Part shown: piece after piece, positions 4,998 to 64,000 of the stretch
Layout of the letters: every line of letters begins with the position of its first letter
Position numbering within the stretch: the first letter of the stretch is position 1
Assembly (NCBI GenBank): GCA_020137815.1
Contig: CM035352.1
Location: 2,976,001-3,040,000 of the forward strand
Length of the DNA: 64,000 bases
From: Hormiphora californensis
Taxonomy: Eukaryota; Animalia; Ctenophora
Reading direction: 5' to 3'
Translations under genes and position numbers: made by a program
Notes under the pieces: model-generated
What the model was told of the DNA's origin: nothing
Databases searched by the model: none
What the model saw: the letters and a program-made list of their open reading frames with translations, nothing else

Positions 4998-5149
4998 GTC
5001 TCTCCTTGAAAAAACAGAGCGGTAAATAGATTGGAGACAGGAGAAATAGCAGTAAGTAAAAAGAAGCGATAGATTGGGATAGATTTGAGATATATCTCGG
5101 AACAAGGTGAAGGTAAAGTGAGAGAAAGAGATAAGAATAAATAGGGAGT

Positions 5150-17968: not shown

Positions 17969-18045
17969 TGGCTGTATAACATTGGGATGTTGATTATACT
18001 AAATATGGACAGCTCCCCCTCCCCCTGCTACTACACGATAGAAAA

Positions 18046-18154
18046 CAGGAACCGACCGAATCAGGAAATACTAGTCCCTGATTGGCTGATAACCAGTCAC
18101 GTGACCTAAATAACGAGTTCTGATTGGTTGTTTACTTGTTTCGGTCGGTCCCTG
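18046..18154 (-). mobile_element. 109-bp hAT-type MITE, second copy in opposite orientation
   Basis: Same family as 3812; 8-bp TSD ATAGAAAA at 18038-18045 and 18155-18162. Confidence 0.92.
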
Positions 18155-18235
18155 ATAGAAAACAATTCACTTCAGAAACGTATATAAATAAAAATCTGGT
18201 CAATATATTTATTGTGTTATTACAGAATTTTAATT

Positions 18236-28053: not shown

Positions 28054-28084
<31 letters not shown>

Positions 28085-33480: not shown

Positions 33481-33564
33481 TATTCAAATTCAAAAATATG
33501 CAGAAATCAGAAAGAAAAAAATCCGAAAAATAGCTTTTTCTATTTTACACCAAAAAGAACAGAA

Positions 33565-33782
33565 ATTTAGTCCAAAAACCAATTAAATAAATTAGTTTGG
33601 ATGCCCGGGCCCATGTGGTGTCACGGGGGTAACACCTTTAGGCTATAACTGTCATAAATGATGGATATCGAGAGAGATAAAGGCAAAGGAAATTAGGATA
33701 GAAAGGGTGAGATATAATCAAGAAAGACGGAGAGATAAATATGAGGAGAGAGAAAAAAGAGAGATATAGTGAAAGAAACAGT

Positions 33783-33872
<90 letters not shown>

Positions 33873-34038
33873 GAGAGTGAGAGAGATAGACAAAGATAGA
33901 CAGATTGAAGGATAACAATTAACAATTAACGAGATATGCCGTTAATTATGGCAGTTATAGCCTAAAGGTGTTACCCCCGTGACACCACATGGGCCCGGGC
34001 ATCCAAACTAATTTATTTAATTGGTTTTTGGACTAAAT
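33565..34038. mobile_element. MITE with ~85-bp TIRs and internal (AG)n
   Basis: ATTTAGTCCAAAAACC...GGCTATAACTG mirrored at about 33951-34038. Confidence 0.88.
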
Positions 34039-37000
34039 ATATATATATACTCGTTTAGACATGATATGTAGTATGTCTAAACAAGTTGTAAATCTACAAT
34101 TTTAACGCCCACAATTACACACATATCCAACTCCGCCCATGTACTATTACTACAGCTATCACGTTCTATCTAGGTGGAGTCAGGCGAGATCGAGATCGTA
34201 GACGATTATGAATGCGACCCGACATACACCCCGGACGCCTCTCCATGTGACACCCCGCTAACCAGTTTTGCCAGGGCTGCCCATGATGCTGGAGTATCCG
34301 ATAGAGTCTTGTGCCGGCTCCTAAAGAACTACCATTTCGTGAGTGAAGCGTCAAGCTAATCAAACTAACAAACCCCTTTTTGAGATCCAGAAACATCAAT
34401 TATAAGACATTTTTCTTAGGACAAGACTGGAGAGATTATCTCCTGTTCGAATACGAAGGTAAGGAGAGAAATGGACAAAGCTGCAGAAATGGCGTTGAAG
34501 GCGCTTAGGGAAGCAGGATCTCCCATCGGAATATATTTCGATGGGAAGAAGGTCCTGAAAGCCATGAAAAAGGGGACGGTGTGGCAGGAACAGATAACAG
34601 TTCTAGGGTTTTCAGAATCTTCAGAGCGGCCTATCTACTACACCTATTGCCTCATGGACTCACCCATCAGTGAGTTGATCGTTTCCTGTTTTTGTTCCGC
34701 ATATTACAAATTTCATATGTATTGATACAGTTTCCATTATAATGGTATGTTCATTTATTAGGAGGCGATGAGAAGCCCGCCGAGTTGATTGCCCGTGGGA
34801 TCATTAGCCACCTCGAGCAATTGGGCATCGATAGGAAGCTGATAAGAGTAATTGGGTGTGATGGTACCAACACAAACGTGGGAAGGTGCGGAGGTAAGGC
34901 ATCATGATTATAACGCATACAAAATGCAACGGAGCTCATTCAGATTTTTAGAAAAACATAACTAACAATGTTTCAGGAGTGGTGTTCCATCTACAGGAAC
35001 TCTTAAAGAGAAAACTAACCATGTTAGTGTGCTGACTTCACAGGTTAGAACTAGGACTGAAGGCCGCCGCTAAATACTTCTCCGGAGGAACCATTTCCCC
35101 GAGCGGATTTAGGGGAAGGATGGGGCTCCTTCTCGGTTCGAACCTACATGAACGCCCACCAGTTAAGGTATAAAATCTAATCTTTTCATTCTGATAATTT
35201 TCTTTATCTAACAAGTACAAAGTTTCATGCTATAAATAAGCTGTAACTTACAGTGCAGTAAGTATAACCATGGATAATATGATTTCAGTATAGGTTTATT
35301 GGTGCCATGAGAGAGTTCCCAGACCATGTAGTGCAGAATCTCAGCAGTGACAGCAAACTCCTCTACTGGTACTGCCTCACCGCTTCATTTCGTAAGTTGA
35401 CCTGTAAAGATATAGTTTCATAGGTATAAATTCATATAAAATTAGACAAAATTCAGGGAATGTTTCTGAAAGTATTAAATATATTCCCGACCGGCCCCTA
35501 TTAGTTGGTCCACCCGAAAAAACAGCCAGGCACATTACTGGTCTGCCCAGTCGCTTCCTGGTGAAGGCTTTGTCCCTTAACCTTTAATGAGATCTCATTA
35601 GATCTTATTTGAGAAATAAAAATAAATCTTTTCAATAGTCGTAATTGGTTTAGCAGTGTGCTTTAAGTAACGAGTCCCTCTTCATATAATATTTTTCTAT
35701 AGAAATTGAGAACCGCAGTGTGCTTATTATTTTATTATTACAACTTTACATGCTATCAAAATTTAATTTCCAAACTACAGCCCCTAGATTTGCTGAAGAT
35801 GGTTCTTGGTTGCCCAATCACCCGAGCCTTCCTCCAAACCTTATGGAAATGAAACCTGGGCCACTTTTTCATGCACGGTGGTTAACGTTGGGGAGCAGGG
35901 TGATGAGAGCGTTCCTTTCTTTGCCCCATTCAGACGATCCGATGTACGGCAAAATCAAGTGTCTGGCAATGTATGTCAGCAAGATTTACTTCCCCATCCA
36001 CATGGAGATGAAGGTACAAGTTCTATTTGTAACTTAGAGAGATCGAGAATAAGAGGGTTGAATGAGAGTGATAGAGAGAAAGAAGTAGCAACAGTTCATA
36101 CCCATAGGAAAACGAGAAATTTAAAAAAATAGGAGACCAAAAGCAGAGATCAGGATAATATTACACATCTTTTTCAGTTGAAAAGTGGCATGGAGTTTGG
36201 GCCAGGGCACCTCCTAAAAGAAATCATTGAAGTAAACAAGGCGGTGTACTTCCTATCCCCCGAGGTGCGGGACATGGTGTTGAAAAAAATATCGAACAAT
36301 GCCCACTTCGCCCACCCAGATCATGTCCTGTACGCCATGTTGCGTAAGTGAGCCAAATTTCTTCATTTGTATAATAGATAGTTAAGTTGAGAATTATTAG
36401 TTCAAGAGGGAGTGGGATAAAAATAGTGATTGATAATAAGGGACGGATAGACAAGTATCTTAAGATCAGTTTCGTTTCTTTTCCAATGAAGGTCCTCCCA
36501 GATTTAGATCTCGGTCGAAGAGAAGGCTTTTCCAGAGTGATGAATTATAGAGATACTTATTAGATAGAATAAATAGAGATATAATGAAAATATATTTTCG
36601 ATTCCAGAATAAGTTTCTTAATGAACCCATTACCCATCAGATTCCCCTGATTCTACGAATGCAATGAGGGAGAAAGCCAAGCAGTTGTTGGACAAGGCCA
36701 GCCAGCTCCCTGCTCGTCGTGACAAATATGTTGATAAGCCATTCCTTAATACCAAGGCACAGAACATATCCGACTTATGCTTTTTCAGGACGCCGGTAAG
36801 TTATTTGAGTGTTTATTTCAGTCTTTAATATCGAGGTTTTCCATTTCTATTACATATATTATTTAGACTCACTGATGCATAACTGTTATGAAATACAATT
36901 ATAAAGCGAACAAAATTTTTGTTTTTTAGAAGAAGGGAAAGTACTCTGGCCAGTTGTGCTGGGCGACACAGAAAATGACCAAGGATAAGAACGGGAAGGT

Positions 37001-37484
37001 AGAGATCCTCAAGATCTGGAAACCTGTGACGCTGCCTCCCTGCAATGATGTTACACCCGGAACCTGCCCCAATCATTCTCAAATGGTGGAGAGGCATGTG
37101 GCCACAAGCGCTTCAGTGGCAGATAGGTAAGGCCAGCAGACTGAGACATAGACTCTAGTTCAACTAGATTAGTTGATACTTGATAAACTAAACCTAGCTG
37201 ATATAATAACGATGGTCATGTCGCCTAGAGCACATGCCTATTCTTGAAACACTTTTCTCATTTCCAGGTTTAGATCAGACCGTAAGTGCCAAGCAAGTGC
37301 ATTAGTAAAGGAGCTGGAAAGAGCAAAGAGGAGAAAACTGTTTTAGACCCATTTTGGTGAACACACTACTGACACTGTATATATCGTTTTTCCAGTTATG
37401 CTGATTTCTTTTGAATTTCGATACTGTTTTAATATTTATTTTTTTACCACGTAAAAATATATTATGTATATGAGTATAGTATGA

Positions 37485-38761: not shown

Positions 38762-39885
38762 GGTCAGGTACAGGTAAAGACAGAGTTCTCACCAAACTCC
38801 AGTCGAAGAGGAGACGAATCAATCGAAGAATAGCAAAAATAAGAAAGGATCAAGCCGTTCGAGAGTGGAAAAGCTAGAAGAACTCGTCGCGGTCACTATA
38901 ACAGCCATCAAGGAGCATTTAATCAACCAGATAAATGCAGAAGAGGACAAGATTGTGACCCAGATCAAGACTAACCCGAAGGTCTTCTTTTCCTACGCGA
39001 ACAGCAAGAGGAAAACACACTCAAACATCGGACCCCTATTAACGCCGAGTGGAGCCCTTACTGATGACCCCTGGAAAAGGCCTAGTTCCTCCAGACCCAG
39101 TAAGGTATTCAGCGATCCATCTCAGGTAAAGGTAGAGGACGCCCTTCTAGGTATCGAGGAGCAGACAGAGGAGCTGACCGACACCCAAAGATGGAATTCC
39201 AGCTCTCATATTAAGGGAATTTCGAAGCTATTTAGCCTACCCCCTGTGGAGACTGTGGACAGAATCCTTTGCTGAGGGAAACATTCCGGAGGAGTTGAAG
39301 AGACAGCAGATAGCCCCTATCTTCAAGAAAGGAAACAAAAGTATAGCTGAGAACTACCGACCGGTAGCACTGACCAGCCACGTGACCAAAACCTTCGAAC
39401 GAGTGGTGTGCAAGGAGATAACTGAATTTGTTGAGTGGCAAGGTATTCTAAACAACGAACAACACGGATTCAGATCAGGACGTAGCTGCCTTACTCAACT
39501 ACTTGAACACTATGATGTAATCCTGGAGGACCTCAACCAAGGGAGTGAAGTAGATGTGGCTTACATCGACTTTAGCAAAGCCTTTGATAAGGTTGATATC
39601 AGTATCCTTCTTCATAAACTGAAAAGATATGGTATCAGGGGAAGACTACTTCAGTGGATCAGAGCCTTCCTCACTGGTAGGTCACAGACTGTGGTGATAG
39701 ACGGAGCATGCTCCAGGGCCGAGAGTGTCACCAGTAGTGTCCTCCAGGGATCTGTGCTTGTACCCCTTCTATTCATCATATATGTGTGTGACTTGGTATC
39801 CCGGACGACGGGAGGTACGCTTACCTTCGCGGACAATTACACCAAAAGCCGCCAAGCAATTACTGGATTGGAAGACAGGGATGCC

Positions 39886-40601
39886 TTGGTAACGAAGTTA
39901 CCCCTCCCTTGCCGGCGCGGCGTGCGAAGCACGCCAAACGAAGGCCGCGAAGCGGCCTGAGTAGGGGTAACAAACCCGCTTTGATTCACTTCAAAAATTA
40001 ATAGCTCCTCAACCACTCAATGAAAATGCACCAAATTTTGGTATTCCCCACCAAATTGTCTGAAAATTATAATTCTGTACTCATATTTAAAAAATTATCC
40101 CCGGAACCTTGGTTTTGAAATCAGTTTTAGGTGTTAATGATGAAAAAAAATTTTGAAAAAGTAGGTTAGGTATGCTTAACATCATATCAAAGATCGTGGC
40201 AAAGTTTGAAGTTTCTATCTTGAAAGGTCTGGCCATCAAAATTAAAAAGGTCTTGAAGTTGAACCATTTGTACAAAACATGTTGTAACTCAGCTTCTACT
40301 TTGCCAAATTAAACCTGGTTTGAAACACTGAACTGCTAATCTATCCCTCCGAATACGGACGAAGTTTGAAACCGCCAGCTCTATTGGCCGCTCTGCAATA
40401 CTTGTTTGTGTCAAAGAAATCAGGAAAGTAACGAGATTTGGTCTCGGTGTGGCCCTGTGCGCGGCTCAAACCCCTTAGCTAGAACTATGTAGTGTAGACT
40501 ACAACTTTTCAGTGCTCAGTATAACGTTTTGGGCGCGCTATAAAAATAGGGCAAGCCCTTCTGATACCTCTAAACAGAGTGTGAGGTGTCTTCGATACCA
40601 A
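39886..40601. mobile_element. MITE with 12-bp TIR, 9-bp TSD and subterminal T-shaped hairpin
   Basis: TTGGTAACGAAG / CTTCGATACCAA; TSD AGGGATGCC at 39877-39885 and 40602-40610. Removal restores LINE frame EDRDALQENLEQI. Confidence 0.88.
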
Positions 40602-45004: not shown

Positions 45005-48000
45005 ATGTCTTTGGGAAGCCTGTTAGACATGCGTACAGAGTCGCAGAAGCTATTAAAGAAACAGGAACTTGACCTACGAAAACTGGAATTAAAGTTGAAC
45101 AAGAAACAGGCCGGAGGAATTTCCCCTCCAGTTGGTCCTATCAAACGACGGGTAGCTGGCGGAAAAATTGTAAGTTATAACTCGAAAAATTTGACATTGA
45201 CATAATCCTACGATCAAATAATTGTTTTTTGCAATGACTGAGTAATTGGAAGGCCGCCAGGGCAAGTTTGAAGCGTCTGGAGGATGTGAAGCTCAGGGGG
45301 AGCCTTGACATGGACAACAGAGACAGCGTTAGCAAGCGCTTCTGGGGCCAGGTCAAGGTTAACTCTAAGACCACTCGTATTCCACCTATTGTTAACAATG
45401 GAGAGGTTTTTAGATCTAGTGGGGTTGAGCAAGCTAACTTATTTAACGAGTGTTTTGCATCTAATTTTTCTACCGCTAGTGATTATAGTGTGTTACCGGA
45501 TATTACTGATAATGGTTACGTTATGGAGTTCAGTGCTAGTGAGATTTACGATGTTTTGTCTAAGCTTAATGCTCGCAAAGCTGCAGGCCCTGACGACATT
45601 CATAGCGTTATCTACTGTGTGATTTTAAATGACTGAGACTGCTCTATCTGAAATTGTGTAAAAACTATGGCATCTTTCGACTTCAAATTTTGGGACACGA
45701 TAAAACATAATTTCTCATTTATTCTCCCAGATTTTCAGAACGTTTCCGTGTTCCTGAATGAACTTATTGCCATAAAACCTCCTCCAACTTTACACAGTCA
45801 TATCTCTGGAGTCTAATGAGATAGAGTGTTCAGATTTTTAGGAGAAACAGATAAGACGATTTTGAATGTTTTGTCTGCTTTACGAGTTGATAACTTTTAC
45901 CGTCTGTTCACAGGAACTGTTTAAAGTGATGTAACACGCTCTAATTAGGCCAAATTTAGGTCATTTTACCCCTCAAAGATCACATGTCCAGCTGATTCTA
46001 GTGGGCTAATGAGGCCTCTTACACGAATTCGTCACGTGTTACTGCAAGGATACCGCTCTCCCTTTTCACCTTGACCAAGCAGACATGATCATGGTGTCTG
46101 GAAGTGGTAACAAGCTGTAGGATACCAGACAGATGCTGCTCTCTACTTAAATCACTCTCTCGTTATATGGTCACGTGACTGGAATTGGGATCTCGACATC
46201 AGACATGATCACAATGTCTACAAAGCGTTCTCTCTCTCTCTCTCTCTTCTTGCTTTGTAGACATTAGGGGTTGCTAAGTTGAAAATTTTTGAATACTCAA
46301 TTTTAAAGTGTTGCACGTGTATTGGGATGTTCTAGGGACTAATTTCCGTGTTTTGAAATTTTAAAATTTCAAATTTTTTTTTCGATTTTTCCCCGATTTT
46401 TCACCGAAAACAAGGGTCACAAAAGTGGCTTGCGATCCTTAGTGGCTCAACCGTTTGTGCTGAAACTTCTAATATCAGTAGAAAATTACCCACTGAATAC
46501 TGGACATATTGTTCCAAAGCGATATTTTGAGTATACAGCAAGGTATACAAAATATAGTGCTCCATTGACTTCATTAACCCTAAAATTCCCATTATTTACG
46601 CAAAAACGCGGGTTATGAAAGTCGCTTGCGATCCTTAGTGGCTCAACCGTTTGGGCTGAAACTTCGGAAATCAGTAGAAAATTACCCACTGAATACCAGA
46701 CATATTGTTCCAAAGCGATATTTTTCAACTTAGCAACCCCTAGTAGACATTGTGATCATGTCTGATGTCGAGATCCCAATTCCAGTCACGTGACCTTATA
46801 ACGAGAGAGTGATTGAAGTAGAGAGCAGCATCTGTCTGGTATCCTACAGCTTGTTACCACTTCCAGACACCATGATCATGTCTGCATGGTCAAGGTGACA
46901 AAGGAGAGCGGTATCATTGCAGTAACACGTGACGAATTCGTGTAAGAGGCCTCATTAGCCCACTAGAATTAGCTGGACATGTGATCTTTGAGGGGTAAAA
47001 TGACCTAAATTTGGCCTAATTAGAGCGTGTTACATCACTTTAAACAGTTCCTGTGAACAGACGGTAAAAGTTATCAACTCGTAAAGCAGACAAAACATTC
47101 AAAATCGTCTTATCTGTCTCTCCTAAAAATCTGAACTCTCTATCTCATTAGACTCCAAAGATATGACTGTGTAAAGTTGGAGGAGGTTTTATGGCAATAA
47201 GTTCATTCAGGAACACGGAAACGTTCTGAAAATCTGGGAGAATAAATGAGAAATTATGTTTTATCGTGTCCCAAAATTTGAAGTCGAAAGATGCCATAGT
47301 TTTTACACAATTTCAGATAGAGCAGTCTCAGTCATTTAAAATCACACAGTATAAGGAATGTGCTGGTCCCTTGGCGCATCCCCTCTCGATACTTTATAAC
47401 CAGGCATACAATAGTTCTGCTCTTCCTAACATCTGGAAAGCTGCTAATGTGGTGCCTGTACATAAGTCGGGGGACACCAAGGATGTGCGCAATTACAGAC
47501 CTATATCGCTTACTTGTATCATTATGAAGATCCTAGAGAGATTGATTTATAACCGTTTACTTAGCGTTTGTATTAGTAAGCTTGACAGTAGACAGCATGG
47601 TTTCCTACCTGGTAGGTCGTGTCTGACTCAACTCGTCCTGTTCCTCGATGATTTGATTTCTAATGATAATGAGAGAGTTGCTACCGATATTATATATTTT
47701 GATTTCTCCAAGGCGTTTGACTCAGTTAATCACGACTTGATTCTGAGTAAAATCCGTAATAGATTTGGTATTGATGGCAAACTTCTGGGATTAATCAGGG
47801 TGTATCTTATGGGTAGAACTCAAAGAGTGGTTGTAGGAGGGTGTTTTTCTTCTTTTCTCTCTGTTCTTAGTGGTGTTCCCCAGGGTAGTTTGCTAGGGCC
47901 GCTTCTATTTGTGATGTTTATTGACGACATCACTGAGTGCCTCGTAGGTAACACCAAAATGCTGTTGTATGCAGATGACCTGAAAGTATGGAGTAAGGTT

Positions 48001-51000
48001 GCCTGCCTGCAGGAACACTTGGATTTGCAGTTCACAGTAGATTGTCTACAATCTTGGGCAGTTGCCAATAAGATGGTGTTTCACCCGGGTAAGTGTAAGG
48101 TAGTCTCTACCCGAACGAGCTATTGGGTTGCCACTTGGAGTCAGCTACCTTTCTATCTTTACTCCTACAAACTTGCCGGAGTTGTGCTCGATAATGTGGA
48201 TATTCAGCGATCAGATCTCGGTATCTATGTATGCTGGGATCTCGACTGGAGGTACCATTGTCAGTACATTCTTGGTAAGTTTACTGACAGATTTAACTTA
48301 TTACGTAGAACTACTGTAAAACCATTAATTTTCGTGAGATTTTAATTTTCGCTCTATATTTTTGGCTGGAAAATCCGCGAAAATTAATTCCGCGAAAATA
48401 TTTTTGGACGATTTTTCACAAAAAACTCGTGCAAATCATTGAGCTTGTAGAGAAACTTGAGCATTGTAGATGGGAGTAGTGGTAATAATGGTGTTAACAC
48501 TGCTCATATGACTGACTCTTGGCGTAATTAGACAATAAACGTGGACCGTGAAATGGGGGTGGCAGTGGGATTAGCGAAAATTAAAACCGCGAAAATAGTC
48601 AATTTTGATCGAATCGCGAAAATTAATGGTCGTGAAAATATCTGGTTTTACAGTATGTATATGATTGTAAACCCACACCAAAAACGTACCCTCTATGTTA
48701 CCCTGGTGCGCTCATTTCTTGAGCACTGCTCTCCAATCTGGACCCCACACCACGTGGGTGTTCTCAATGATCTGGAGGCTGCTCAAAAAAGATGCATTAA
48801 GTGGGTGTATGGTGTTAGCCCCCTCGATAGTTGGAGTGAGCGTGATTATTACGATAAACTAGTGACTCTTCGTATTTTACCCATTCGTGAGCAATTTTAT
48901 TTCAACGATATATGAAACTTTTATTCAAGATTATCCATGGCCTAGCTCCGTACGGCCTCCCGGGTTATATTTGTTATATTCTCCCTACGGATTACTCATA
49001 CAGGTCTAGACTGAATAAAGATATTGTTGACGGGGTCGATACTACAACTATCAAGTGTACTGTTGACCCTTGCACCAGTACTTTCCGTAACAGTTTTTTC
49101 TACCGATCTGTTAAAGCATGGAATTCTATCCCATATGAGATTAGACAAGCTACTTCGTATGATAGCTTTTGTTTACGTTTCAAATGCCACATTTTCAACT
49201 CTCTTGGTGACTAGGTTTAATTTCTATTTACCCCCCCCCCCCTATGTTACTTCCTCCATATACATGCGCTCAGTGGTTTTTGACCTCTACCTGTATCCTG
49301 CTGGCATACCAGCTGCAGCACATCTTCGTCAACTCGTCAACTCACCTCGCCTGCCCAACTCTTCGGTGTACACGGTGGCAGTGTTTGGGAGACAGCACGG
49401 GCTGAGAGATTTTTCATGGACTTGTGTTTCTGTGTGTATTTTACAAAATTACCGTATAGTAATTTTAATAGACTCTGTTAAGGTGTGTCCTGAGGGTGCC
49501 GCCTGTAACCGCGGGTTTTTACCCTGTTGGTGGAGCCCTATGAGCTCGTTATGATTTATAAATTTTCCCGTTTTAACTTTTTCACAATAACTACCGCCAC
49601 TACTTTTACCAGGTTATAAAATCAAAGCCTAGTAAGGGCCTGGTAATGCGTGTGAGGAATGATAGAATTAATGTGAGCAGTGACGATTCTGCAAGGGAGG
49701 ACTCAGGCGACGACCGACGAAAGAAAAAGAAAATTACCATCACCACCAGAAATGAGAGAAAATCTGCACCAGCCTCTTTGGGAAGGGAACAGGAACATCT
49801 ACTTCCCACATCCCGTGCAGTACCTCCTCCTAGTGCTCCTACTCCTACCTCTCTTCCTTACAATATACCACATGGATACCAACAACCACATGGCTACCAA
49901 CAACCACTAATTCTTCCCGTACAGTACATCCATGAGTGAGTAAAATGTGGGAATAACTGTACTTGGACCTTGGTACAGTTATTATCAAGTATGATTTAAA
50001 TACCGGACATGTTATTGTGTAACATGACCCAGGATAAGCACTTATTATGTAACCTGACCCTTTATCTGTGTAACATTACACCCAACGTTGTAAATTAACA
50101 TTCTACTTTCTCCCAGGCCTCCCGTACCCCGACGACGTGAACCAAGTGATGATTGCAGTATATGCCACCATCACACATCCCACCACCCCTCCCACCATCA
50201 CCACAGATCAAGATCACCTTATGAACGGCACCACCACCCTCCACCACCTCCAAGATATGCCTCACCCCCACCGGCCCCAAGATACGACCGGAGGTATAGC
50301 GAGGGAAGGAAGTATCATCAAGAGGCTGAGGAAGAGTTGAGGTACCCCGAGGAGAGGAGATCATACCGGCCAGCCCCGCAACAACAACAACAACCAAACA
50401 TCGTTAGGAGGACTCACCATCAGGTCGATATTGGGGATGAGAGAGGAGAAACACTACCTAGAGTAAGTTTCTTTTAGTGGTAACTGGTAATCATCATCTC
50501 TAGTGACATTGTATTATTTAGGTCCTATTTAGCTTGAAGTTGTAATGTGCCACCCATACGATATTGTTCAGTTTTTTATTGTTCTGAGTGTACAGGAGTC
50601 TGAAGAAGACCCAACTAACTTCTAAAATGGTCTTGCGAATTCCAATAGTGGGGGGGGGGGGTGCAGCCCAAAAAAAACCACCATACCCTGGATTTTCAAA
50701 AGTGTTGATTTTTTTTGGTCGTTTTTTATTTTTTTTGATTTTTTTTAATCTTTTTTTATTTTTTCCCTGCCCGGGTGGATGCCCGAAGGGCATCCACCCG
50801 GATGATCGTTTTAGCACGTGTGCTAAAAAGATCATAAAGGGTTTAGAAATCTCGGATTTGAAATAGTAACTCGAGCGTGGTCAAAATCGCGTGTGTCACG
50901 GTAGCAGCATAGTAACTGCTCCTTCATAAAATCAAATAACTGTTTTGATGAAATATGATGTCAGGACGCTTATTTTTCAAAGCTGTGCGCGGCGCTCACA

Positions 51001-54000
51001 ACACTGTTGCTGAAGGGGTGAGGGTAGAGTAAAACACCTGTGTAACTGCATATACAATATACATACAGGACGCATGCATCTCACATTGTGACCAAGCCTT
51101 GATATTGTGATACTGATAGTGTGATACTGATCCTGTCGACGGAGGGCAGGGAAACACCGCATTATGAATACATAATGCAATAATTCTTGTTGTTTTGTTC
51201 AAACGGGGAGGGAGGGTCGAACAAGGCAAAATTCTTGTTTTTTTTTTTTGATCTTTTTTATTTTTTTTGATCTTTTTTGATTTTTTTGATCTTTTTTGAT
51301 TATTTTTGATCGTTTTTGATTTTTTTAAAATTTTTTTGATCGTTTATGATTTTATTTTTATTCATTCTCAATGTTAAGGAGCGTGACTCTCTCACTCAGA
51401 GGATATATAGAGGTGGGCGAGTAGAGAGCACAACGGACGATATACAGTCGGACCCCGATTTAACGGCACCCTCGGGGGAAAGGGTTTTGTCCGTTAAATC
51501 GGGGTGTCCGTTAAATCGGGGTAGAGCATATTTGGCCCATAAAACCCTATTTGTGTCCAAAATACTATACTAAAACACCTCTAAGTAAATGCTATGTCCA
51601 TGTATTGATTACATGATCATTTCCGGTTAGAAAAATAAAATAATTTTAAAAATTTAAAAAAAAAAATTCTAAGGTACGTGTACTGGTATATCAACTACGT
51701 CCGAATCAGTGCATCTTATCGCATGTCTTGCTGCTAATTAGACGGTTCGGAACGAACCGATACGTGATACCATGCCGAATCGGGGCACTTTAAGCGGGGT
51801 GAGGAAGAATTCGAATTTCAAAATATCTTTTTCTCTGAAAATTCATGAGGAGCACCGATCAAAGCATTGACAATCATTCTGTAAAATTTTCCAAAAAAAA
51901 GTTATGAAAATTTTTCAAAGATATATCAACCACGTCTGAATCGTGTTTCGAATCAGTGCATCTTATCGCACGTCCTGTCGCTAATTAGACGGTTCGAAAC
52001 GAACCGATACGTGATCCCCATGGGGCCAGTTTAACAAGTGTCAAAATTGCGACTCGATTGGCCTCATGGGGATCACATATCTGTTCGTTTCGAACCGTCT
52101 AATTACGGGTAAGACCTGCAATAAGATGCACCGATTCGAAACACGATTCGGACGTGGTTGAAACACCTTTGGAAAATTTTCAAAAAAATTTCAAAAAAAT
52201 TTTCAAAAAATTGTTGGGGGAAATTTATCCTGCCGTTAAATCGGGGTGCCGCTAAATCGGGGGCCGTTAAATCGGGGTCCGACTGTATATGTTTTATAAT
52301 TTTGTTTAGTAATTTATTTCTGACGTGTTAGCGCAAGAGCGCATTTATTTCAATAACAACTGAGAACTCTCAGCATTAAAGATTTGTTTACGGGAGCACT
52401 CTCCCCCCAAAAAAAAATTTTATTTGATCGTTTTTGATTTTTTTAAAATTTTTTTAATCGTTTTTGATTTTATTTGATCGTTTTTGATTTTTTTTGAACT
52501 TTTTTGTTCAACATTAAACAATTAAAAAATATCAAAAACAATCAAAAAAATTAAAAAACGATCAAAAAAATTCAAAAAAAAATCAAAAACGATAAAAAAA
52601 AATCAAAAAAGATAAAAAAAAAATCAAAAACGACCAAAAAAAATCAAAGAAATTTCAACCAAAAAAACCAACCATACCCTGGGTTTCGGAAAAAGTTTGA
52701 ATTTTTTTGGGGCTGCACCCCCCCCCCCCCCCCAATAGTGAACCATAATACAGTTCAAGAGCCTCCAAGAACGCACCAGGACCAGGAGGGCACCCCAGAA
52801 GAGGTCACACACGCAAATACAACGCCGCGGACATCTTCTGCGTGTGGTATCCCCTGCACGTGGTATCTTCTGGCTGGGGAACTTTCTTGGATTTGGTGCG
52901 CTCTTGATTGTAGTCTCTCTTGGATTTGGTGCGCTCTTGATTGTGGTCTCTTCTGGGTGTGGTTCGCTCTTGGATATGGTCTCTTTTGGGTGTGGTTCGC
53001 TCTTAGAGGCTCTTGAACTATTATGGTTCACTATTTCCAGAACTTCACTAATTGTACATTGTTTTCCAGGAAAGGAAGCGAGGCCCGGTATCACCACGTG
53101 GTAATGGGGCTACAGCTGTTCCGGCGGCAAGAGTGGGAGGAGGTGGTGGTACAATTGAGGTTTATCGTGTTATGATTTCTAACCTCCATCCTTCCGTATC
53201 AATAACCGATATTGAGGTAATTCTTGTTGTTCTTCTTTGTCATTTCTCCTTCAGAAAGGGGTTCAATGACCCTTTCTTCTACTGCAGCCAAGCAGCTTGG
53301 ATGTAGAAGAAGGGGTCAAACTACCTAACTTTATATGAATATTGAAATGTAGTTGTAGGCAGCTGATCTGTAGTAAAACAAGCACCAGTGCTCACAACGT
53401 CCAAGTGTACACACTATTATACAAGGTGTACATGTTGTCTTCACATTTGTTTAACATGTTACCTGATCCTCTCACTATCCTCTCTCACTCTCTCACTATT
53501 TCTGTCTCTCTCTCCTCCCTGCCTCTCTATCTATTCCCTCTCTGTATGTGTCTGTTACCCACTAGCACCCTATATCCATCCCTATCCCTAACACTACTTC
53601 ACTGCAATATTCATACAGCTATAGATTCCAGATATATCTTTATTCGTTGTTATACGACTGCAGTGTCTGCTATCCCATGACAGACTGCAATATTTACTTC
53701 CGGATGGGAGAAGACAGTCTTTTGTTAGAAAAAGAAGAAATATATCTCTCTCCCTACCCCCACTGCTGCCATGCTGCACTGCAGTATTTCACATATATGG
53801 TACACCTTTTCAGGAGTTGTTTGTAGCCATTGACCGGATTGATGCCATCCAAATGTTGTACCCCGGTGTTGCTGAGGTGACATTTCTAAATGAGGAAAGT
53901 GCTGCTACCGCAATTGAAAAGTACCACAATAGACATCTTGATGGGCAGCCCATGCAGCTCAGTTACACAGTTGTTCAAAGGTGAGGGATAGGGAGTTAAA

Positions 54001-54621
54001 ACAGAGATTGTATATCACCATCATCATGATTCATCGTAGTTGTCAAATGTCATTATTCATTTCCATTTCTTACGGGGTCTTCTAAATTTCTACACCTCCT
54101 AAATCCATTAGCGATGAGGTTGTGCTAATCCCGGATATTACACGTGCACGCAGCACGATATACAACACATGTGTGCTGTGACCCACTTGCCTCACTTTTC
54201 CTGCTGGTATAACAGCCACTGCTGCAGCTGGGACTGGTGCAGTAGGGAGAGTGAGGCGATTCAACTTCCTCCCAGATGTTTGTTTTCATATCGACACCAC
54301 GTATATCATGTCACCTCAGCATTATGAACCATAGTATATTACATTCCACAGCTGGTACTAAAACTGGAAAAGAGTAACCAGAGTGTAACCAGTGACCACT
54401 TATATTGTTTTTATTAACCAGATGACCCTTTCAGATCCCATAAAGTAGCACGAGAGGCAAGACAGGAGGAGCGAGAAGAGAGGCCCGCTAGAGAGCCTGC
54501 TAGAGAGGACCGAGCCCCAGCTGTCAGACAAGAGAGACGACAAAAAACAAACTACCATCGGAGAAATGTTACAAAACAACAACCCTCCACCAAGTCACAT
54601 TCTTTTACTGTGACAATGTAA
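45005..54621 (+). CDS. POLDIP3: POLDIP3/SKAR-like RRM protein, 6 exons
   Basis: Exons 45005-45169, 49613-49935, 50117-50462, 53070-53216, 53814-53980, 54435-54621; all GT-AG with consistent phases. RRM VMISNLHPSVSITDIEELF...PGVAEVTF...KYHNRHLDGQPM; C-terminus SFTVTM. Confidence 0.85.
45615..47349. mobile_element. Large foldback element (TA TSD, ~610-bp arms)
   Basis: TA|CTGTGTGATTTTAAATGAC...GTCATTTAAAATCACACAG|TA; removal restores HSVIYKECAGPLA. Confidence 0.92.
46265..46742. mobile_element. hAT-type MITE nested in the foldback
   Basis: TIR TAGGGGTTGCTAAGTTGAAAA; 8-bp TSD GTAGACAT at 46257-46264 and 46743-46750. Confidence 0.92.
48314..48653. mobile_element. Tc1/mariner-type MITE
   Basis: TA|CTGTAAAACCA...TGGTTTTACAG|TA; removal restores LLRRTMYMIVNP. 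Confidence 0.88.
50650..52731. mobile_element. MITE with poly-G/poly-C termini in POLDIP3 intron 3
   Basis: (G)n-TGCAGCCC...GGGCTGCA-(C)n; TSD CCAATAGT at 50642-50649 and 52732-52739. Confidence 0.8.
51445..52285. mobile_element. Tc1/pogo-type MITE, nested
   Basis: TA|CAGTCGGACCCCGATTTAACGGC...GCCGTTAAATCGGGGTCCGACTG|TA. Confidence 0.9.
52736..53033. mobile_element. MITE related to 7866-8247
   Basis: TAGTGAACCATAATA...AGTTCAAGAGCCTC / GAGGCTCTTGAACT...TATTATGGTTCACTA. Confidence 0.8.
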
Positions 54622-56085: not shown

Positions 56086-56397
56086 GCAAAAACAACTTAA
56101 CCATCTCTCCATGTAAATAAATGTAGTTATTATTATCATCACACGATGAGAAAAGTCTGAAAGTAACGTGTATAAACGGTATTATTATGATATGACTAGA
56201 TCTAAATTGAATGTTAAGATTGCCTAAATAAATGATAGGGACACTGAGAGTCTCTCTCAGAGAGAGAGAGAGGTTAATAAAAAAGAGATATCAGAAGATC
56301 TGTAAACAAAAACGTCTGTGCTCTGGATATCTCATATCTGACGAGTCCTCTCCATGTTACTTCACTTTGAATGTGTCTTTGTGTGTGATGTCTACCA

Positions 56398-57700
56398 TTA
56401 GATCTGGGTAAATTCCCTACCCTGAAGTTGTTTAGTTTGTTCAAGTTCCGATCTAAGCCTACGGATAAGAGAGTTTTTCTCCTGTAGAGATCTCTCCAGT
56501 ATTCTTATCTTTGCGTCCTGAACGAAAGAGTGTGGTCAGAATAAATACGAACTGTTCATTTCTAGACATGGTAAACTTGATAAATTGAATATGTGCCCTA
56601 AATGGGGCTTTTTTAATATACCTGTTTGAAAGCTGTGCTCTCGAGTTCTATTAATCTCTCCTTAAGAGAGTGGCCATCCAGCCTATCAAGGCTACAGTGT
56701 GAACTATACTCCGATGTCGAGCATGCGTCTTTGTATTGTAGAGGTATTGGCTCGTTGCTGCCACAGGAAATGTTTGACAGAGATACCCCGTTGGATATTT
56801 TATCAAACCTGAGAAGGGAGTGTTGGGCATTGAGGGGGCAAGAAATAAGGGCTATTGTTGTGGTTCTCGAATTTCATTTATACGTCAAGTCGTGTGCCAG
56901 ACAAGTGTAAAGAAAGTTCGTTATGTGGTCATAATATCCAGTTTGGGGAGTCTATAAAAATACCTATGACTCATACCTCTCAATATCACGTTCACTCAGT
57001 CGATAACAAAATTCCTCCAAATTCCGTAGCCGCTTGTTTACCTCCGTCTGGGGAAGCTTAGTTTGGTTCTGTTCCAACATCGATCTCAACCTCTCGTTCT
57101 CCTGAAATCGAGTGAGAGTTTTTTACACGAGAAACAATTAACACGACATGCAAGCTACTGCAGGGGGGGGGGTGAGTATCAGGGCTGCCCCGGGGCGGCT
57201 CCATATCCACCCTTGGAGAGATGGATCGTTGGAATGTGTGGCGCGCACAAACTAGACAACAACACACAACCCTCTCACCACAACCCAGACCCCCGTCCTG
57301 CTAGTTGTTTGTGCGGGAGGCGCGAAAGAGCCACACACACTCACCTCTCGAAGGGCTATGTTTTGTTGTGCGTTGTACCCGCTCCCCTCCCTTAGTGATG
57401 TCATTTGTACGGACAGCTGGCTCAGCTTGTTGTGTAGGTTTTCATTGGCACGCTGACATCTATCGTACTCTGGGTGAAAATATAGGGGTTCGAGATCAGA
57501 TCGGAGTGTCTATAAAGTGGAGACTTAGAGGCGGAAATAAGAGAAAAATAAACTACTAAACAGACACACTGAAAACACTCACGGTGTGTAAGGTTGTTGT
57601 ACGCTTGTTGCAGGGACACTGAATCATTCTGACTATTGGTAGAGTTTGGTGGCTCTATGTAGGGGGGACACTTGTTACTAAACCTAGGATCAACATTCAT
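56398..57700 (-). CDS. Small coiled-coil protein of unknown function, about 120 aa, 3 exons
   Basis: Exons 57700-57583, 57469-57345, 56517-56398 splice in frame via GTGAGT donors and CAG acceptors: MNVDPRF...SLQQAYNNLTHQYDRCQRANENLHNKLSQL...DAKIRILERSLQEKNSLIRRLRSELEQTKQLQGREFTQI*. 3' end uncertain. Confidence 0.65.
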
Positions 57701-57761
57701 CGTATCAAGGAGTCATTGAGATCTTGTGTTACTGGCGGTGTGTTGTGGTGGTTAATCCATT

Positions 57762-57869
57762 CTAGAGGGGGACAGGTTAGTAATGTCAATTGTGAGCCGT
57801 TAGAAACTTAACATTCAAAGAACATTGAAATAAAATGTCAATAAATTATTTAAAACCCTTTCTAATAAA
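57762..57869 (-). promoter_or_regulatory. 108-nt U-rich intergenic spacer ending in branch point plus unpaired 3' acceptor (putative trans-splice site)
   Basis: Minus strand directly after the POP1 stop ends in ...TACTAACCTGTCCCCCTCTAG; no strong GT(A/G)AGT donor in the spacer (only a weak GTTAAGT). Confidence 0.55.
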
Positions 57870-59318
57870 TTAATTGCCCTCCTCAATAAAAGAAATAGTT
57901 ACAGGCCGAAGTATTTGAGATTTAGGGTTTCTAAGTTTCATCTCCACACTACTACCACGTGTCACTAGTCCTCTATTGACGACCCCAATGCCACCTCCCC
58001 GTCCACTTATCAAGTTGTAGCCTCCTGAGGTTACCCACCCAACCTCAACCTCACCTTCTAACAACACACCTCTAACCTCAACTGAACCTCGCCCTGAACA
58101 CTGCACTGATACACGAGTTAGAGGACCTCCTCCCCTCTTCTCACCGGAAGGGGAATCTGGGTAGTCAGAGGGGAAGAAAGGAATGTTAGAGAGTGTAGAA
58201 ATGGAATGTGAATCAGAAAGTCCTGTGATGCGGCCCCCGCTGTACACCAGGGGTAGGAGAAACCTAGTACCCCATCCGGGTGGTAGAACTAGGACGAAAG
58301 ATGACGAAACTGGGTCACGGTATACACAGTATGGTGCTCTACAGTCTTCAGTGGTAGTGGTAGTGGTATCCATGGGTGTTTCTATTGTACTTCCTTCTTC
58401 TGCCGTCGAGTTAAAAAGAGGGCTACCGTTGACTAGATCCATACAGGGTGTTATCACATTATCTGGCTGCCTCACAGGTCCATCAAGGAGAGAGGTAAAC
58501 ACTCTGTACACCTTTTCTGGAACCTCAACTTCACCCCCAAACACTACCCCCTTGGCAATATAATAAAAGTACGGATCTTTCCTCAACTCACCCAACCTCC
58601 CTCCAAACTCCAGACTCTTCGCCAGCAACTCTAACGACCTCTGACCGGATATTGTAAATTCCTGGAATTTCTGACGTTTTGCGGTGGTGATGACATCAGG
58701 GAAAACAGGTGTAATTACAGGATGGAAGCGGAGGTATAATCGTGTGGGAGATGTCCAAAACACGGTTACAGGGCCCTGGTATACCTCCCCATTATACCAT
58801 GAACACTCTTGCACTCGATCTAACAACACCCTACTGGGCTGTATGGGTAGGGTGGTCTCCAGATCCAGTCCCCTCACCTCCCACCAGTGATAGAAACTAG
58901 TATCCTGGACCGTGGCGCTGTCTCGTATCGCCCGAAACTGGGCTCTATCACCCTTCTGCGTGGTAGTCATGGGGATGCGGTGTCCCCATTTGTCTTCCAT
59001 GTGGCACCTCTTGGCATGCCACAGATGGGTCTCTAACTTCTCAATCCCTCCCTCGTTTCTCCTCTCCCTATTTGGGTTCCTCTTCTTCTTCCACCTGCAT
59101 TTTGTTTTCGTTCTCTCAGCCCCAACAGGTCGGAACCTCGCGGGTAGCCTGGCTGGGTTGTGACTGGCAGCCCTTCGTCGCATGTAAAACGGTATTGCTA
59201 GCTTGTAGCTGATTGCACACTGAGTTTTCATTGCTTCCAATGCTTCCGTGATTTCCAAACTCCGGGAATCCACAATATCCATAACGTTCACAGCAGTAGT
59301 TGTAGTAGTTGTGGCCAT
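57870..59318 (-). CDS. POP1: RNase P/MRP subunit POP1, intronless and unusually short (482 aa)
   Basis: MRRRAASHN, LETHLWHAKRCHM..KWG, QDTSF, POPLD-type LVLPPGWG..F..PLV..GGR, FFPSDYPDSPSG, C-terminal VGWVTSGGYNL..G.G.G; start MATTTT at 59318. Confidence 0.9.
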   Translation of the reverse strand: MATTTTTTAVNVMDIVDSRSLEITEALEAMKTQCAISYKLAIPFYMRRRAASHNPARLPARFRPVGAERTKTKCRWKKKRNPNRERRNEGGIEKLETHLWHAKRCHMEDKWGHRIPMTTTQKGDRAQFRAIRDSATVQDTSFYHWWEVRGLDLETTLPIQPSRVLLDRVQECSWYNGEVYQGPVTVFWTSPTRLYLRFHPVITPVFPDVITTAKRQKFQEFTISGQRSLELLAKSLEFGGRLGELRKDPYFYYIAKGVVFGGEVEVPEKVYRVFTSLLDGPVRQPDNVITPCMDLVNGSPLFNSTAEEGSTIETPMDTTTTTTEDCRAPYCVYRDPVSSSFVLVLPPGWGTRFLLPLVYSGGRITGLSDSHSISTLSNIPFFPSDYPDSPSGEKRGGGPLTRVSVQCSGRGSVEVRGVLLEGEVEVGWVTSGGYNLISGRGGGIGVVNRGLVTRGSSVEMKLRNPKSQILRPVTISFIEEGN

Positions 59319-59641
59319 TGTGTGGAGTTCTGCAGGGGAGAGGGGAAGGGAGGGATAGTGAGAGAGGGAAGGAGACAGAGAGAGAGGGAAGGAGACAGTG
59401 AGAGAGATAGGGTACAAATATATCGGCTACTCAACCATGGGATTGTGATGGAAAGTGTAACACACTCTTGCACACGCTGCATTCAAAATTTCAAAGAAAA
59501 TAAATTCACAGAATCAACACAGACATAACTGGCACAAAATATCCTCCCTTGCATAATATATTCCCAAACACACCATTATACCATATTCAGTATAAGTGAT
59601 CTCAAAAGAATTCAACTAAACGAATGACGTCATTTCTGACG

Positions 59642-60403
59642 TCACCTCTCCTCTCCCTCATCATCCGAAGATCCCCCCATGGCAGAATAAAATGACATGG
59701 CAACCTTCTCTGCGTACTGCCTTCTCTCGTCTGTTGGCAGCCCATTTGCTACCTCCCTTAGCTTCAGTAGGTTCCCAAACAAGTCATTAAAATCCCCATT
59801 ACCATTGAGGAGGTCCTCTAAATTACCCTCTCCTAACAAATCATCAACCCCATCCAATATCGCTGGACCCCCATCCTTCACCTCTTCTTCTTCCTGTCTT
59901 TCAGGAGCAGTAAGAAGTGATGCCAGAGTGCTATCGGACTCCTTCATTGTCCTACTAGGCCACATGTGGCATTCAAGTGCCTCCCTAACCCGACCCATAC
60001 CATCAGAGTGACCCAGTAACCCTGCTACATCATCCTCTCCATCAGATAGATAGTGAACTAACTCAAACTCCCTCTCAATACTCCATTCCAGAAAACCAGG
60101 AGCTGAGGAGTTTGAGTTGACCAGTAGAATCCGGACTTCTGGGTCTGCCTTTTCTAGCCAGTCTGTCCATGTGGCTAGTTTATCTAGTTCAATTAGGACA
60201 TTATCAACAACAAACACAACTGCTTCTACCGGATCCTCAGGAGGTGTCTCTGTAAAGAGGACTTGTGTCGTGACGGTGAAATATTTGTTGTCGAAGGTTA
60301 GTCTGCTACTGGCCGGGTCACATTGTAAGGCAGTTGATATGTCAGAGTTGGGGATAGATGAGACGTTGTTGATTGCAATCCGATCTATATCTAGCGTTAC
60401 CAT
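59642..60403 (-). CDS. AAGAB: Alpha- and gamma-adaptin-binding protein p34, intronless, 253 aa
   Basis: DNKYF, WSIEREFELV, GMGRVREALECHMWP, LPTDERRQYAEKVAMSFYSAMGG plus acidic tail. Confidence 0.92.
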   Translation of the reverse strand: MVTLDIDRIAINNVSSIPNSDISTALQCDPASSRLTFDNKYFTVTTQVLFTETPPEDPVEAVVFVVDNVLIELDKLATWTDWLEKADPEVRILLVNSNSSAPGFLEWSIEREFELVHYLSDGEDDVAGLLGHSDGMGRVREALECHMWPSRTMKESDSTLASLLTAPERQEEEEVKDGGPAILDGVDDLLGEGNLEDLLNGNGDFNDLFGNLLKLREVANGLPTDERRQYAEKVAMSFYSAMGGSSDDEGEER

Positions 60404-60741
60404 GCTGAGTGGGAGAGAAGTTAGTTAGAGCTGGGAAATTGAGGGACGGGGAAATGGGAATAGAGATAAGTTGAGAGCGTCTGTTGGTTAGAGCTGGGAA
60501 ATTGAGGGACGGTGGTCGGGGAGTAGAGATAAATGGTGAGAAAGAAGACGGGACAACTGCAGTAAAACTTAGTAAGTTGGATGGAAATTGAAATAATATT
60601 TACACCTGCACTGCTGGTAATTTGTCGGCAACATTGTAGGTCACAACAGAATAATAAAAAGGTTAAATAACACACTGTCTACGTAAGACTAATCCTACAC
60701 CATTGCTAACTTAGTAAATAACAACTGTTCAAAAAGAGTCT

Positions 60742-63700
60742 TCATTCCATTTTTTCCATGAACTGGTAGTGATCCATAAGGCCCTGAGCCCTCGATCTGG
60801 TAGGCATCCCTTTGACAAGACTGTCCAACGAGTCAATAATACGCTCCAAATTTGGTAAACTATCACAATCCGGCACATTGAGGAAGGTGTCATATAACAT
60901 CTCGAAAAACTCTCTATCCACCCTACGATGAGGCTTCTTTGTTGGCACCCATTTCCCTCCTTTATCCTGCATGACGCTCATGTACTCATTGTGGATCATC
61001 ATGTGAACACAAGACAGCAGTCCATAGTAGTCCACCTGGTAGGTCCAAGGTCGGCCACTCTGCATCTCTACACACTCGAACTGCTCCGTGTGACATGACA
61101 CCGTGAAATGTGATCCATCCGGTAGTAGCTCCATGTCAATAGACCGCCCAAAGTCTATCAGCACCACACTTTTGCTCATCTTACTGAGGGTCATGGTGTG
61201 CTCCTTATCCCGTAGCAGCCAGTTATCAGGCTTCACATCTCCGTGGATTATACCAGTTGAGTGGATGGCGTGGATACACCGTAACATATCAAGGGCGTAG
61301 GTGCATATCACCACGTGAGGTATATCCCTCCTGTAGCTCCGATAATGGTTGATCATATCCAGTAGGCTACCCTCGGGGAAGAGGTTTGTGACAAGAACGG
61401 ATGCATTGGTAAACACATGGATCGCCTTCAGAGGCAGGATCATCTCTATTATCTCTACTTCAACTCCATCCTGCACCATTCTCTCCTTGAGTTCCCGTAG
61501 AATGTAGAACTCCCATGAGGCAGGAGGATAGGAGATTTTAAAAGCGCTCGTAACTGGTTCATTTCCTTCCTGGGAGCATTCCCCTGAGTAGACCTTAGCG
61601 AAAGCACCTTCCCCTACCTGTCTAATGTTCCTGACCGTCTGGGGACCTAGCTGGATAACTTGAGCCTTCTTTAAATCCGTATCGTGTTGGTTGAAATTCT
61701 CCTTGTAACATAGAGGTGGGTCAAGAGATTGGATAAGTCTCTCGATCAAGTGCTGATCGTATGGGTCTGTAACGGGATCTGTTGGGGCGAGGGATTGCCG
61801 GGGTACACGGGGTAGAATGGACATGTCCAGTATAATGTCTCGACAGGTTCGGTCTGGTTGAAAGGCATCCTTCGTTTCTATTTTCAGCAACTGGAGGAGG
61901 AGATAATAATGTGTTAGAGATAAGGTTAATAATAGAGCAGGGCTGCAATACTCTATGTCCTTTCCTTTCCCCACCCTATCGAATAGGGCCCAACTGGGAA
62001 ATTCCTAATCACTCCCAGTATATACTTCCTAACAAGAACATGCCCGATGCAATGACACCTACCTCAGGTACATGATCACCCAGCTCTGCAGTATCCTCAA
62101 AAGCAGACATACTGATTTTTTCAGTCATCTGTAATCGTTCTGTCAACTGGTAGTCCGCATCCGCTTTCACCGCGAATCCTGGCATAAACGCTGTTTCACT
62201 CTAGGGGATAGGGAAGGTTACTACTAGCAATGATTAATGAAATCAGAGATTTACAGAAAAATAAGAGAATATTATATCAGATAGAAATTGATTATTGAAC
62301 TTACTTTTCTGGTCAGATTTCCGAGGAGCATGGCGCTAGATTCATCAGATGACACTGGTGTGGGTGCCTTTCCTTTCTTAGCGGTCTGCTGATTTGAATC
62401 GAAACTGGAAAACGACTCCCTACTTCCCTCCAAAATGGGGGATAACTGCTTCGTTGAGTCCTCCCCAGCTGGAACAGGTCGAGTTGTGTCCCCTCCCCCG
62501 GTACTACCCATTGTCGGATCTTCAACTGAGGGTGTACCGTTCAGGAAGTTGATGAACTGATTGTTGATAACCTGGGTCTCCGTTGCACCTCGCCTACCCA
62601 TTCTCTCAGTGGTGGGTGGTACAAAGGATGAATTATCTGATTTACAGGGTGTTGTCAATGCCTTGATGTCATACGAATCCTCTGCTTTCTCAGGTGTATC
62701 TTTGAAGATATCGAACGCATCGGAAGGTCGGCCAAGATCGGCGTATTCAAGTTTCTCAGGAGTCTGCATTTTCTCTTCGAACAAATCAGTAGTAACTTCT
62801 TTTTGTTCCTTCAGGGCGAGTTTCTTCTTGGCAAATAGTCCCTTGATCATTGCTGGTTCTTTGAACTCTCCTTCACCTGCTGCAGCACCGCCCTTACACA
62901 TTGTGTCCTCGTAAATTGCAAAGCCAGCCCCAAAACCAGCTGATGCTGCTGCAGGTTTCTTTTTTCTGTCCGGTGTTCTGATTGTTGTCTCCAACCTCTC
63001 CATAGTGTAGTTCTTCTCCTCTTCTGGGGGCGAGTGGGACTTTTTGGCTAGCTTTATACTGTCCTCTACGACCATCTTGGGCACGGAAACAGATGACTCT
63101 CCACCTCCTCTCATTGAAAGATGCAACGATAACCTATCCGCTTTCTCGGGCAGCACTTTCCGTGTGGATGACATTAATGAGTTGTCGAGGTGGAAATCAT
63201 TACCGTAAGTTGAGTTGAAGGCCGTCTTCTTGGGCACCATAACTATCTCGTCGCTATCATTCTCATCAGGATCTGAGCTGGACCTTTTCTTTCCCCTGAT
63301 TCCCTCATCCTCACTCTGACACTCTTCACTCTCCCGTTTAGCAAACCGAGCCATGGCCCGCAGCTCCTCAAACGTCCACTCTCCCCCACTCGGTGGGTAT
63401 ACCTTAGTCTTGGAATAAGCCACCGTAGTTGTGGCCGCACCGGTATTCAGGACCGGAGCATCACTGGACCCACCTCCCTTACTAATCCCTGCCCCTGTCG
63501 TGATCTTCTTCGTTTTCAGGGCTGTTGTGTTTCGTTCAAACTTTGGTTCACTGACATTTTGATCGGCCATTTCCTCGAAAATTGAGAACCGTTTTCCAGC
63601 AGGTGCTACCGAGTCAGTTTCCGGGGCAACGACATTCTTCCACCTTTGTTTGGCCAACACGTTCTCCTTGTTGTGCCGAGTTCTGTCCAGAGGGTTGGTT

Positions 63701-64000
63701 GACCTCTTTGGGGCTGTTGTCTCACCATCCCCACCACCTTCGCCGCGATCTTGGAAAATATTGAAACCCCGGTTTGCACTTTTCATGATCGATGGTCCTG
63801 CACGTTGGTCTTGTGAGGTATCACGGAACATCGTTTCCCCGGCTTTCCGGACCTCAACCGGTTTTTCCTTGGCGTCCAGTTCTATTCCACGTTTTTCCAT
63901 GGCCCTGATAATCTGGGTCTTGATGTCCGTCCAATAAGATTTGTCAGGATTCTTACGAAGTGCTGCATTACACACAGCCATTGCTCTTCCAAAGTTTTCA
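60742..64000 (-). CDS. BUB1: Mitotic checkpoint kinase BUB1/BUBR1 (MadBub type), 5'-partial
   Basis: Exons >64000-62305, 62200-62063, 61890-60742. KEN (NKENV), GLEBS (YSKTKVY...EWTFEELRA), ABBA-like (FNIFQD, FSIFEE, FAIYED), KARD-like LSPILEGS, kinase GEGAFAKVY / HGDVKPDN / DFG / CVEMQSGRPWTYQVDY. Confidence 0.93.

Follow-up and report, generated by a model that had tools for sequence, protein, structure and literature searches.

A four-gene cluster with spliced-leader junctions in the ctenophore Hormiphora californensis, a candidate operon

Operons whose downstream genes receive a trans-spliced leader are known from several animal groups. In Ciona, Oikopleura and the chaetognath Paraspadella gotoi they join co-oriented housekeeping-type genes across gaps of under ~250 nt, and the leader added downstream is one widely used on other mRNAs (PMC7986045, PMC12460157). 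The spliced leader 2 (SL2) operons of C. elegans combine downstream trans-splicing with a ~100-nt U-rich spacer (PMC7986045; the U-rich element is cited in PMC3273482), and the RFC140-flp unit of Hydra is bicistronic, as proven with reporters, with a gap of <417 nt that was shown to be promoter-free and that contains a putative poly(A) signal (PMC3273482). Spliced leader (SL) trans-splicing also operates in the ctenophore Hormiphora californensis, where it is described without leaders being tied to polycistronic units (PMC8527503, in the main text of which the word 'operon' occurs 0 times), and according to PMC7986045 operons had not been reported in ctenophores as of 2021. Here, a cluster of four genes, BUB1, AAGAB, POP1 and an unnamed coiled-coil gene (gene 4), is described from a 64,000-nt stretch of H. 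californensis DNA (assembly GCA_020137815.1, contig CM035352.1, positions 2,976,001 to 3,040,000; hereafter the window), and the data make it probable that at least these four genes form an operon resolved by leader addition.

The cluster occupies positions 56398-64000 of the window, the coordinate system used throughout, and gene calls are based on open reading frames (ORFs) with Pfam and PDB searches. BUB1, AAGAB, POP1 and gene 4 lie head to tail on the minus strand, confirming the four co-directional genes of the initial annotation, and 77% of the 7.6-kb cluster is coding. The distances from each stop codon to the next acceptor are 337 nt (60741-60405), 312 nt and 108 nt, a small refinement of the ~335, ~310 and 108 nt originally given. 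It had also been proposed that each downstream gene starts right after its acceptor; this holds for AAGAB and POP1, with start codons 1 nt and 11 nt away, but the long frame of gene 4 begins 61 nt downstream, behind two upstream ORFs (uORFs). The three spacers have no repeat in common with the remainder of the window, in which repeats make up most of 21-49 kb and transposon debris is widespread outside the cluster.

RNA contigs from six runs were compared with the window; they are sparse and mostly oligo-dT, and one run (X6) represents a relative that is mostly <90% alike. A 152-letter contig from run X4 (oligo-dT, study P2, record 22) is identical to 60274-60406 in 133/133 letters and then continues with 19 letters that are absent from the window, and a 169-letter contig from run X5 (oligo-dT, study P3, record 2) is identical to 57617-57763 in 147/147 letters before 22 non-window letters. 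Together with the shared AG, both tails are the exact 3' end of the H. californensis SL, over 21 and 24 letters respectively (PMC8527503). Upstream of the AAGAB and gene 4 acceptors, 15 and 16 of the 24 genomic letters disagree with the leader, so exact matches of 19 and 22 non-genomic letters place these junctions far beyond chance. The leader is joined to base 60404 at AAGAB (acceptor 60404-60407, minus strand) and to base 57761 at gene 4, exactly where the initial annotation had predicted a non-genomic leader. It was found at 2/2 downstream acceptors with coverage, in two studies, the POP1 acceptor and spacer 3 having no coverage, and trans-splicing at the AAGAB and gene 4 acceptors is supported. 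The possibility that spacer 1 or spacer 3 hides a cis-spliced exon was rejected, since the RNA carries the leader there. Two of the 19 loose contig ends listed match the leader, with 11 further loose ends beyond these, one of them at a repeat, and the remaining 17 are interpreted as tags resembling primers or adapters, as repeats, as sequence from other organisms or as parts of X6 that have diverged. In X6 itself there are pieces of gene 4, POP1 and BUB1, with no 5' ends and no AAGAB.

No copy of the leader lies in the 64-kb window, where the best match has 6 mismatches in 24. A genomic copy further upstream of BUB1 might serve as a common first exon, joined in cis to one or another downstream acceptor so that a precursor yields a single mRNA, but every BUB1 exon and the 3' ends would then have to be skipped, and the authors of PMC8527503 regard shared exons as probable mapping artefacts. 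Such an arrangement is very improbable, and even then the cluster would remain a single transcription unit. We infer a trans- rather than a long-range cis-origin of the leader.

As in Ciona, Oikopleura and P. gotoi, the leader found downstream is the common one, and over the 21-24 letters seen an operon-specific leader of the C. elegans SL2 type is not evident. The tunicates and the chaetognath belong to other phyla, with leaders unrelated to that of ctenophores, and gap sizes differ: mostly ~1 nt in Ciona and ~30-60 nt in Oikopleura, as against at most 235, 186 and 108 nt here (PMC7986045, PMC12460157). The rule applied to chaetognaths, i.e. a gap of <250 bp and the leader on at least one gene (PMC12460157), would take in all three of these gaps. 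The Hydra unit is similar in being non-bilaterian, with a T-rich gap of a few hundred nucleotides that includes a pyrimidine tract and an intron-poor, leader-bearing downstream gene (PMC3273482), whereas the present cluster has four genes, is known from sequence and RNA contigs, and has no AATAAA or ATTAAA in its spacers.

Spacer 1 (60405-60741, minus strand, 337 nt) consists of a BUB1 3' untranslated region (UTR) that is RNA-covered to 60640, a pyrimidine tract and the acceptor CAG at 60407-60405; a 58-nt tandem duplication (60420-60540, 83% identical) spans the pyrimidine tract and branch-point-like region before this acceptor. Spacer 2 (59330-59641, minus strand, 312 nt) contains an AAGAB 3' UTR that is RNA-covered to 59516, a 95-nt AG-free pyrimidine tract, the last 40 nt of which are 92% pyrimidine, and again an acceptor CAG. 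Beyond the RNA-covered 3' UTRs at most 235 nt of spacer 1 and 186 nt of spacer 2 remain, and the pyrimidine tract takes 95 of those 186 nt. Spacer 3 (57762-57869, minus strand, 108 nt) has a branch-point-like CTAAC, the acceptor TAG at 57764-57762 and no usable donor; at 42% T and 71% A+T, it bears out the earlier description of a U-rich spacer. Against a donor matrix built from 13 window introns, whose own donors score 5.2-11.3, the best GT sites reach 4.9 in spacer 1, 5.3 in spacer 2 (one borderline site) and 1.7 in spacer 3, so the acceptors are orphans for want of a good donor, as the initial annotation had suggested, with spacer 2 borderline. The strongest single operon case is the step from POP1 to gene 4, where a mere 108 nt would have to accommodate the POP1 3' UTR as well as a branch point and pyrimidine tract. 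AATAAA and ATTAAA are absent from 3/3 spacers; in the same window, AATAAA is present at the PRMT5 3' end. Nematode SL2 operons have AAUAAA ~100 nt upstream of the acceptor, and in lacking a canonical poly(A) hexamer all three spacers differ from them. The spacers are also poor in CpG and CGCG, although CGCG/CpG density was rejected as a promoter proxy, rich patches falling largely in repeats.

In the proposed model, one precursor RNA would start beyond the window, at a promoter preceding BUB1, and 3'-end formation would take place inside the spacers without AATAAA or ATTAAA. The leader, joined at AAGAB and gene 4 and predicted at POP1, would be added at each downstream acceptor, so that every downstream gene acquires a capped 5' end of its own, and would be a general leader serving operonic and ordinary genes alike, as in tunicates, Hydra and chaetognaths. 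That trans-splicing here goes together with polycistronic transcription is the probable reading, and a strict definition of an operon would withhold the name from a locus whose precursor and promoter are predicted.

Indirect evidence comes from gene linkage in another ctenophore lineage. Two ctenophore-like BUB1 kinase fragments (P0061 and P0211), both 59% identical to window BUB1, are from ENA contigs of 107,745 and 437,354 bases, and two POP1 homologues (P0028 and P0007) are from ENA contigs of the same sizes, so BUB1 and POP1 would appear to share these contigs. Because POP1 of this lineage is 81% identical to that of Mnemiopsis and 43-44% identical to window POP1, the linkage would span distant ctenophores. 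With 248 Mb and 13 chromosomes (PMC11797021), two genes would fall on one 108-kb contig by chance with a probability of ~0.04% across the whole genome, or of 0.6% under chromosome conservation, and colinear blocks between Hormiphora and Mnemiopsis are described as holding four genes at most (PMC8527503). These comparisons suggest a conserved BUB1-POP1 linkage. For a third BUB1 fragment of ctenophore-like type, P0064, the longest contig has 92,081 bases, a length shared by none of the POP1 contigs listed. An AAGAB alignment search returned no named ctenophore AAGAB and drifted to non-ctenophore-like matches, and a metagenome scan with the POP1 alignment gave 21 loci with weak partial matches (E 4e-12 or weaker), none of them ctenophore-like. 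Late in the kinase domain, opposite window positions 61030-61050, P0061 and P0211 run into unrelated intron-like sequence where the window gene is continuous, which suggests that BUB1 introns differ between the Mnemiopsis-like lineage and the window.

Several observations weigh against an operon. The leader is found on 56% or more of Hormiphora Iso-Seq reads (PMC8527503), and consequently the leader alone is no operon marker and many monocistronic genes, too, should have an orphan acceptor; acceptor-like sites also stand at the start of other window genes. Each junction is seen in one contig of read length (152 letters at depth 7.9 for AAGAB, 169 letters at depth 3.5 for gene 4), the BUB1 start and upstream region lie beyond the window, and in 6/6 runs no contig bridges a spacer, a negative that sparse coverage makes weak. 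The linkage evidence is of a shared contig only, without order, distance or strand, covers BUB1 and POP1 but neither AAGAB nor gene 4, and comes from two assemblies of one lineage, whose two POP1 copies are 97% identical. Lastly, a doubled TGACGTCA palindrome, with its copies 12 nt apart, lies 295-315 nt upstream of the POP1 acceptor and could act as an internal promoter.

On such grounds the cluster might be four monocistronic genes, with promoters buried in the 3' ends of the upstream genes and the leader merely replacing a short outron; a leader on the majority of Hormiphora mRNAs, the lack of bridging RNA in six sparse runs and the 2021 statement that ctenophore operons are not reported (PMC7986045) are all in keeping with this. 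However, with 108 nt available in total, the promoter and outron of gene 4 would have to overlap the end of the POP1 coding region or its 3' UTR, the cluster would need three overlapping promoters in succession, and there would be no explanation for BUB1 and POP1 apparently being linked in distantly related ctenophores. This makes the monocistronic explanation unlikely.

The palindromes bear on a further alternative, in which the cluster is only partly polycistronic: a POP1 promoter near the AAGAB stop would divide it into BUB1-AAGAB and POP1-gene 4 units, or make it a hybrid operon. Two of the six TGACGTCA sites in the window (0.74 expected) are at 59625-59644, at the AAGAB stop codon, and represent a possible internal promoter element; the motif is one that we take to be CRE-like (cAMP response element). 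Outrons of ~300 nt are plausible from nematodes, which suits the distance of 295-315 nt, and neither a POP1 junction nor read-through was observed at this point. The pair falls, though, in the AAGAB stop and 3' UTR, which are RNA-covered (59516-59670), and a second TGACGTCA pair at 26133/26146 is in repeat-like sequence, so a promoter role is not required. Moreover, BUB1 and POP1 lie on opposite sides of the pair and seem to be linked in another lineage. A division of the cluster at POP1 is accordingly given a low probability. The single leader-resolved operon is still the favoured reading, and that at least one pair of the cluster genes is co-transcribed is held with considerably more confidence.

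BUB1 is represented by three exons on the minus strand: a large coding exon (62305-64000) that is open at the window edge, an internal exon (62063-62200) and the kinase exon with the stop codon (60742-61890). The introns on both sides of the internal exon, including that at 62304-62201, are spliced in RNA run X1. The kinase exon matches PF00069 and BUB1 in the PDB (E 1.5e-56), with 6/6 PDB matches at E<=1e-20 being BUB1 (human and fly-type structures), and after splicing 993 codons can be read without interruption as far as the window edge, beyond which the 5' end lies. AAGAB (alpha/gamma-adaptin-binding p34; 59642-60403, minus strand) is a single coding exon of 253 aa that matches PF10199 (E 1.8e-13) and has a relative, P0001, with 91% identity.

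POP1, a subunit of RNase P/MRP, is likewise a single coding exon (57870-59318, minus strand, 482 aa) with matches to PF06978 (E 1.5e-20) and PF08170 (E 1.4e-10). Its seven best relatives share 36-44% identity, in clusters that hold Mnemiopsis leidyi KAL5265800.1 and Bolinopsis microptera XP_063675772.1, and in a quick tree of 23 rows it falls, on a long branch, in one clade with POP1 of these two species (Shimodaira-Hasegawa-like approximate likelihood ratio test, SH-aLRT, 100). This grouping places the window in a ctenophore, and the leader, identical to that of H. californensis over the part seen, would by itself point to a pleurobrachiid host related to Hormiphora. In the annotations of the other two species the corresponding entries are ACHWQZ_G006488 (M. 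leidyi) and LOC134812322 (B. microptera). The protein is short and fast-evolving, with 482 aa as against 566-601 in seven other ctenophore-like sequences and the longest branch in the clade, and is without ~90 residues ahead of the C-terminal barrel. An assembly artefact was considered as the cause and is unlikely, as an RNA contig from X3 is gapless over 58070-58231.

Gene 4 is modelled on the minus strand as a coiled-coil protein of 224 aa in five exons (57700-57583, 57469-57345, 57101-56977, 56808-56622 and 56517-56398), with heptad-rich, coiled-coil-like stretches and a 3' UTR with RNA coverage at 56166-56314. The last two introns are spliced in RNA, an X6 joint being among the evidence, and the first two are predicted from GT-AG ends and the open frame; there is a possible tandem acceptor at 57101/57098. 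The 5' UTR (57701-57761, minus strand) contains the two uORFs, of 2 and 3 codons (57705-57760), the first of which begins one base past the leader junction. No Pfam family was above cut-off in 5/5 exons, and a one-exon Atlas search was uninformative (best 0.81).

Elsewhere in the window, 9/10 recognised host genes are on the minus strand. The only recognised plus-strand host gene (49600-54600), with a C-terminal RRM (weak PF00076), converges on the gene 4 3' end from ~1.8 kb away. Two further same-strand groups have downstream genes that start at acceptor-like sites and are, from their layout in the sequence, candidate operons: PRMT5 followed by a SENP-like gene, separated by 264 nt (17972-18235; 155 nt without an inserted element, with a predicted SENP 5' exon), and FBXW followed by an SDR gene and a NONO-like RRM gene, separated by 1436 and 502 nt (5005-6440 and 3587-4088). 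The same 109-nt element, 94% identical and mutually inverted, is present in two such spacers (3812-3920 and 18046-18154); it has terminal inverted repeats and CCAAT/E-box-like words, and is either a miniature inverted-repeat transposable element (MITE) tolerated in spacers or a mobile promoter cassette. A SENP-like exon has a frame change near ~13160 (by eye), probably a homopolymer assembly error, with weak PF02902 matches in that exon and the preceding one, and the noisy, homopolymer-rich sequence at 27200-29500 resembles unpolished long-read assembly. Judged by eye, the stretches at 21100-23400, 38800-40000, 45200-48900 and 31700-37300 contain remnants like long interspersed nuclear element (LINE) reverse transcriptases, an inverted repeat of 617 nt (45613-47351) and a transposase-like gene with several exons that has decayed. 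Rfam gave 0 matches across the 64-kb window.

No report of a ctenophore operon was found in the open full-text literature, a scope beyond which some ctenophore SL and genome papers and supplements lie. The word 'operon' is absent from PMC12221973 and PMC11184263, as it is from the main text of PMC8527503, and the portions consulted of PMC6005172, PMC4824033, PMC13498776 and PMC10282587 contain nothing on ctenophore operons. This agrees with PMC7986045 and with the remark in the initial annotation that operons were not known to be characterised in the phylum. The cluster therefore appears to be a known kind of arrangement in a phylum where it is apparently undescribed. A broader proposal, offered tentatively and with somewhat less than even confidence, is that leader-resolved operons are in wide use in ctenophores and that some have been kept since the lobate/cydippid split; the few four-gene colinear blocks left in genomes that are otherwise scrambled would then be operons, and BUB1-AAGAB-POP1-gene 4 one case. 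The 3' ends in ctenophore operons might be set without a canonical poly(A) hexamer.

The locus offers named junctions with which the question can be settled, and both Hormiphora Iso-Seq (PMC8527503) and promoter-chromatin data (PMC12221973) already exist. If operons exist in ctenophores, their downstream genes would be promoterless, which would alter the reading of promoter, enhancer-loop and single-cell co-expression data in ctenophores, and some residual microsynteny would be explained. The 108-nt spacer might be usable as a bicistronic linker for transgenics, as in Hydra. Furthermore, a deep-branching case would be added to the debate over repeated origins of trans-splicing and operons.

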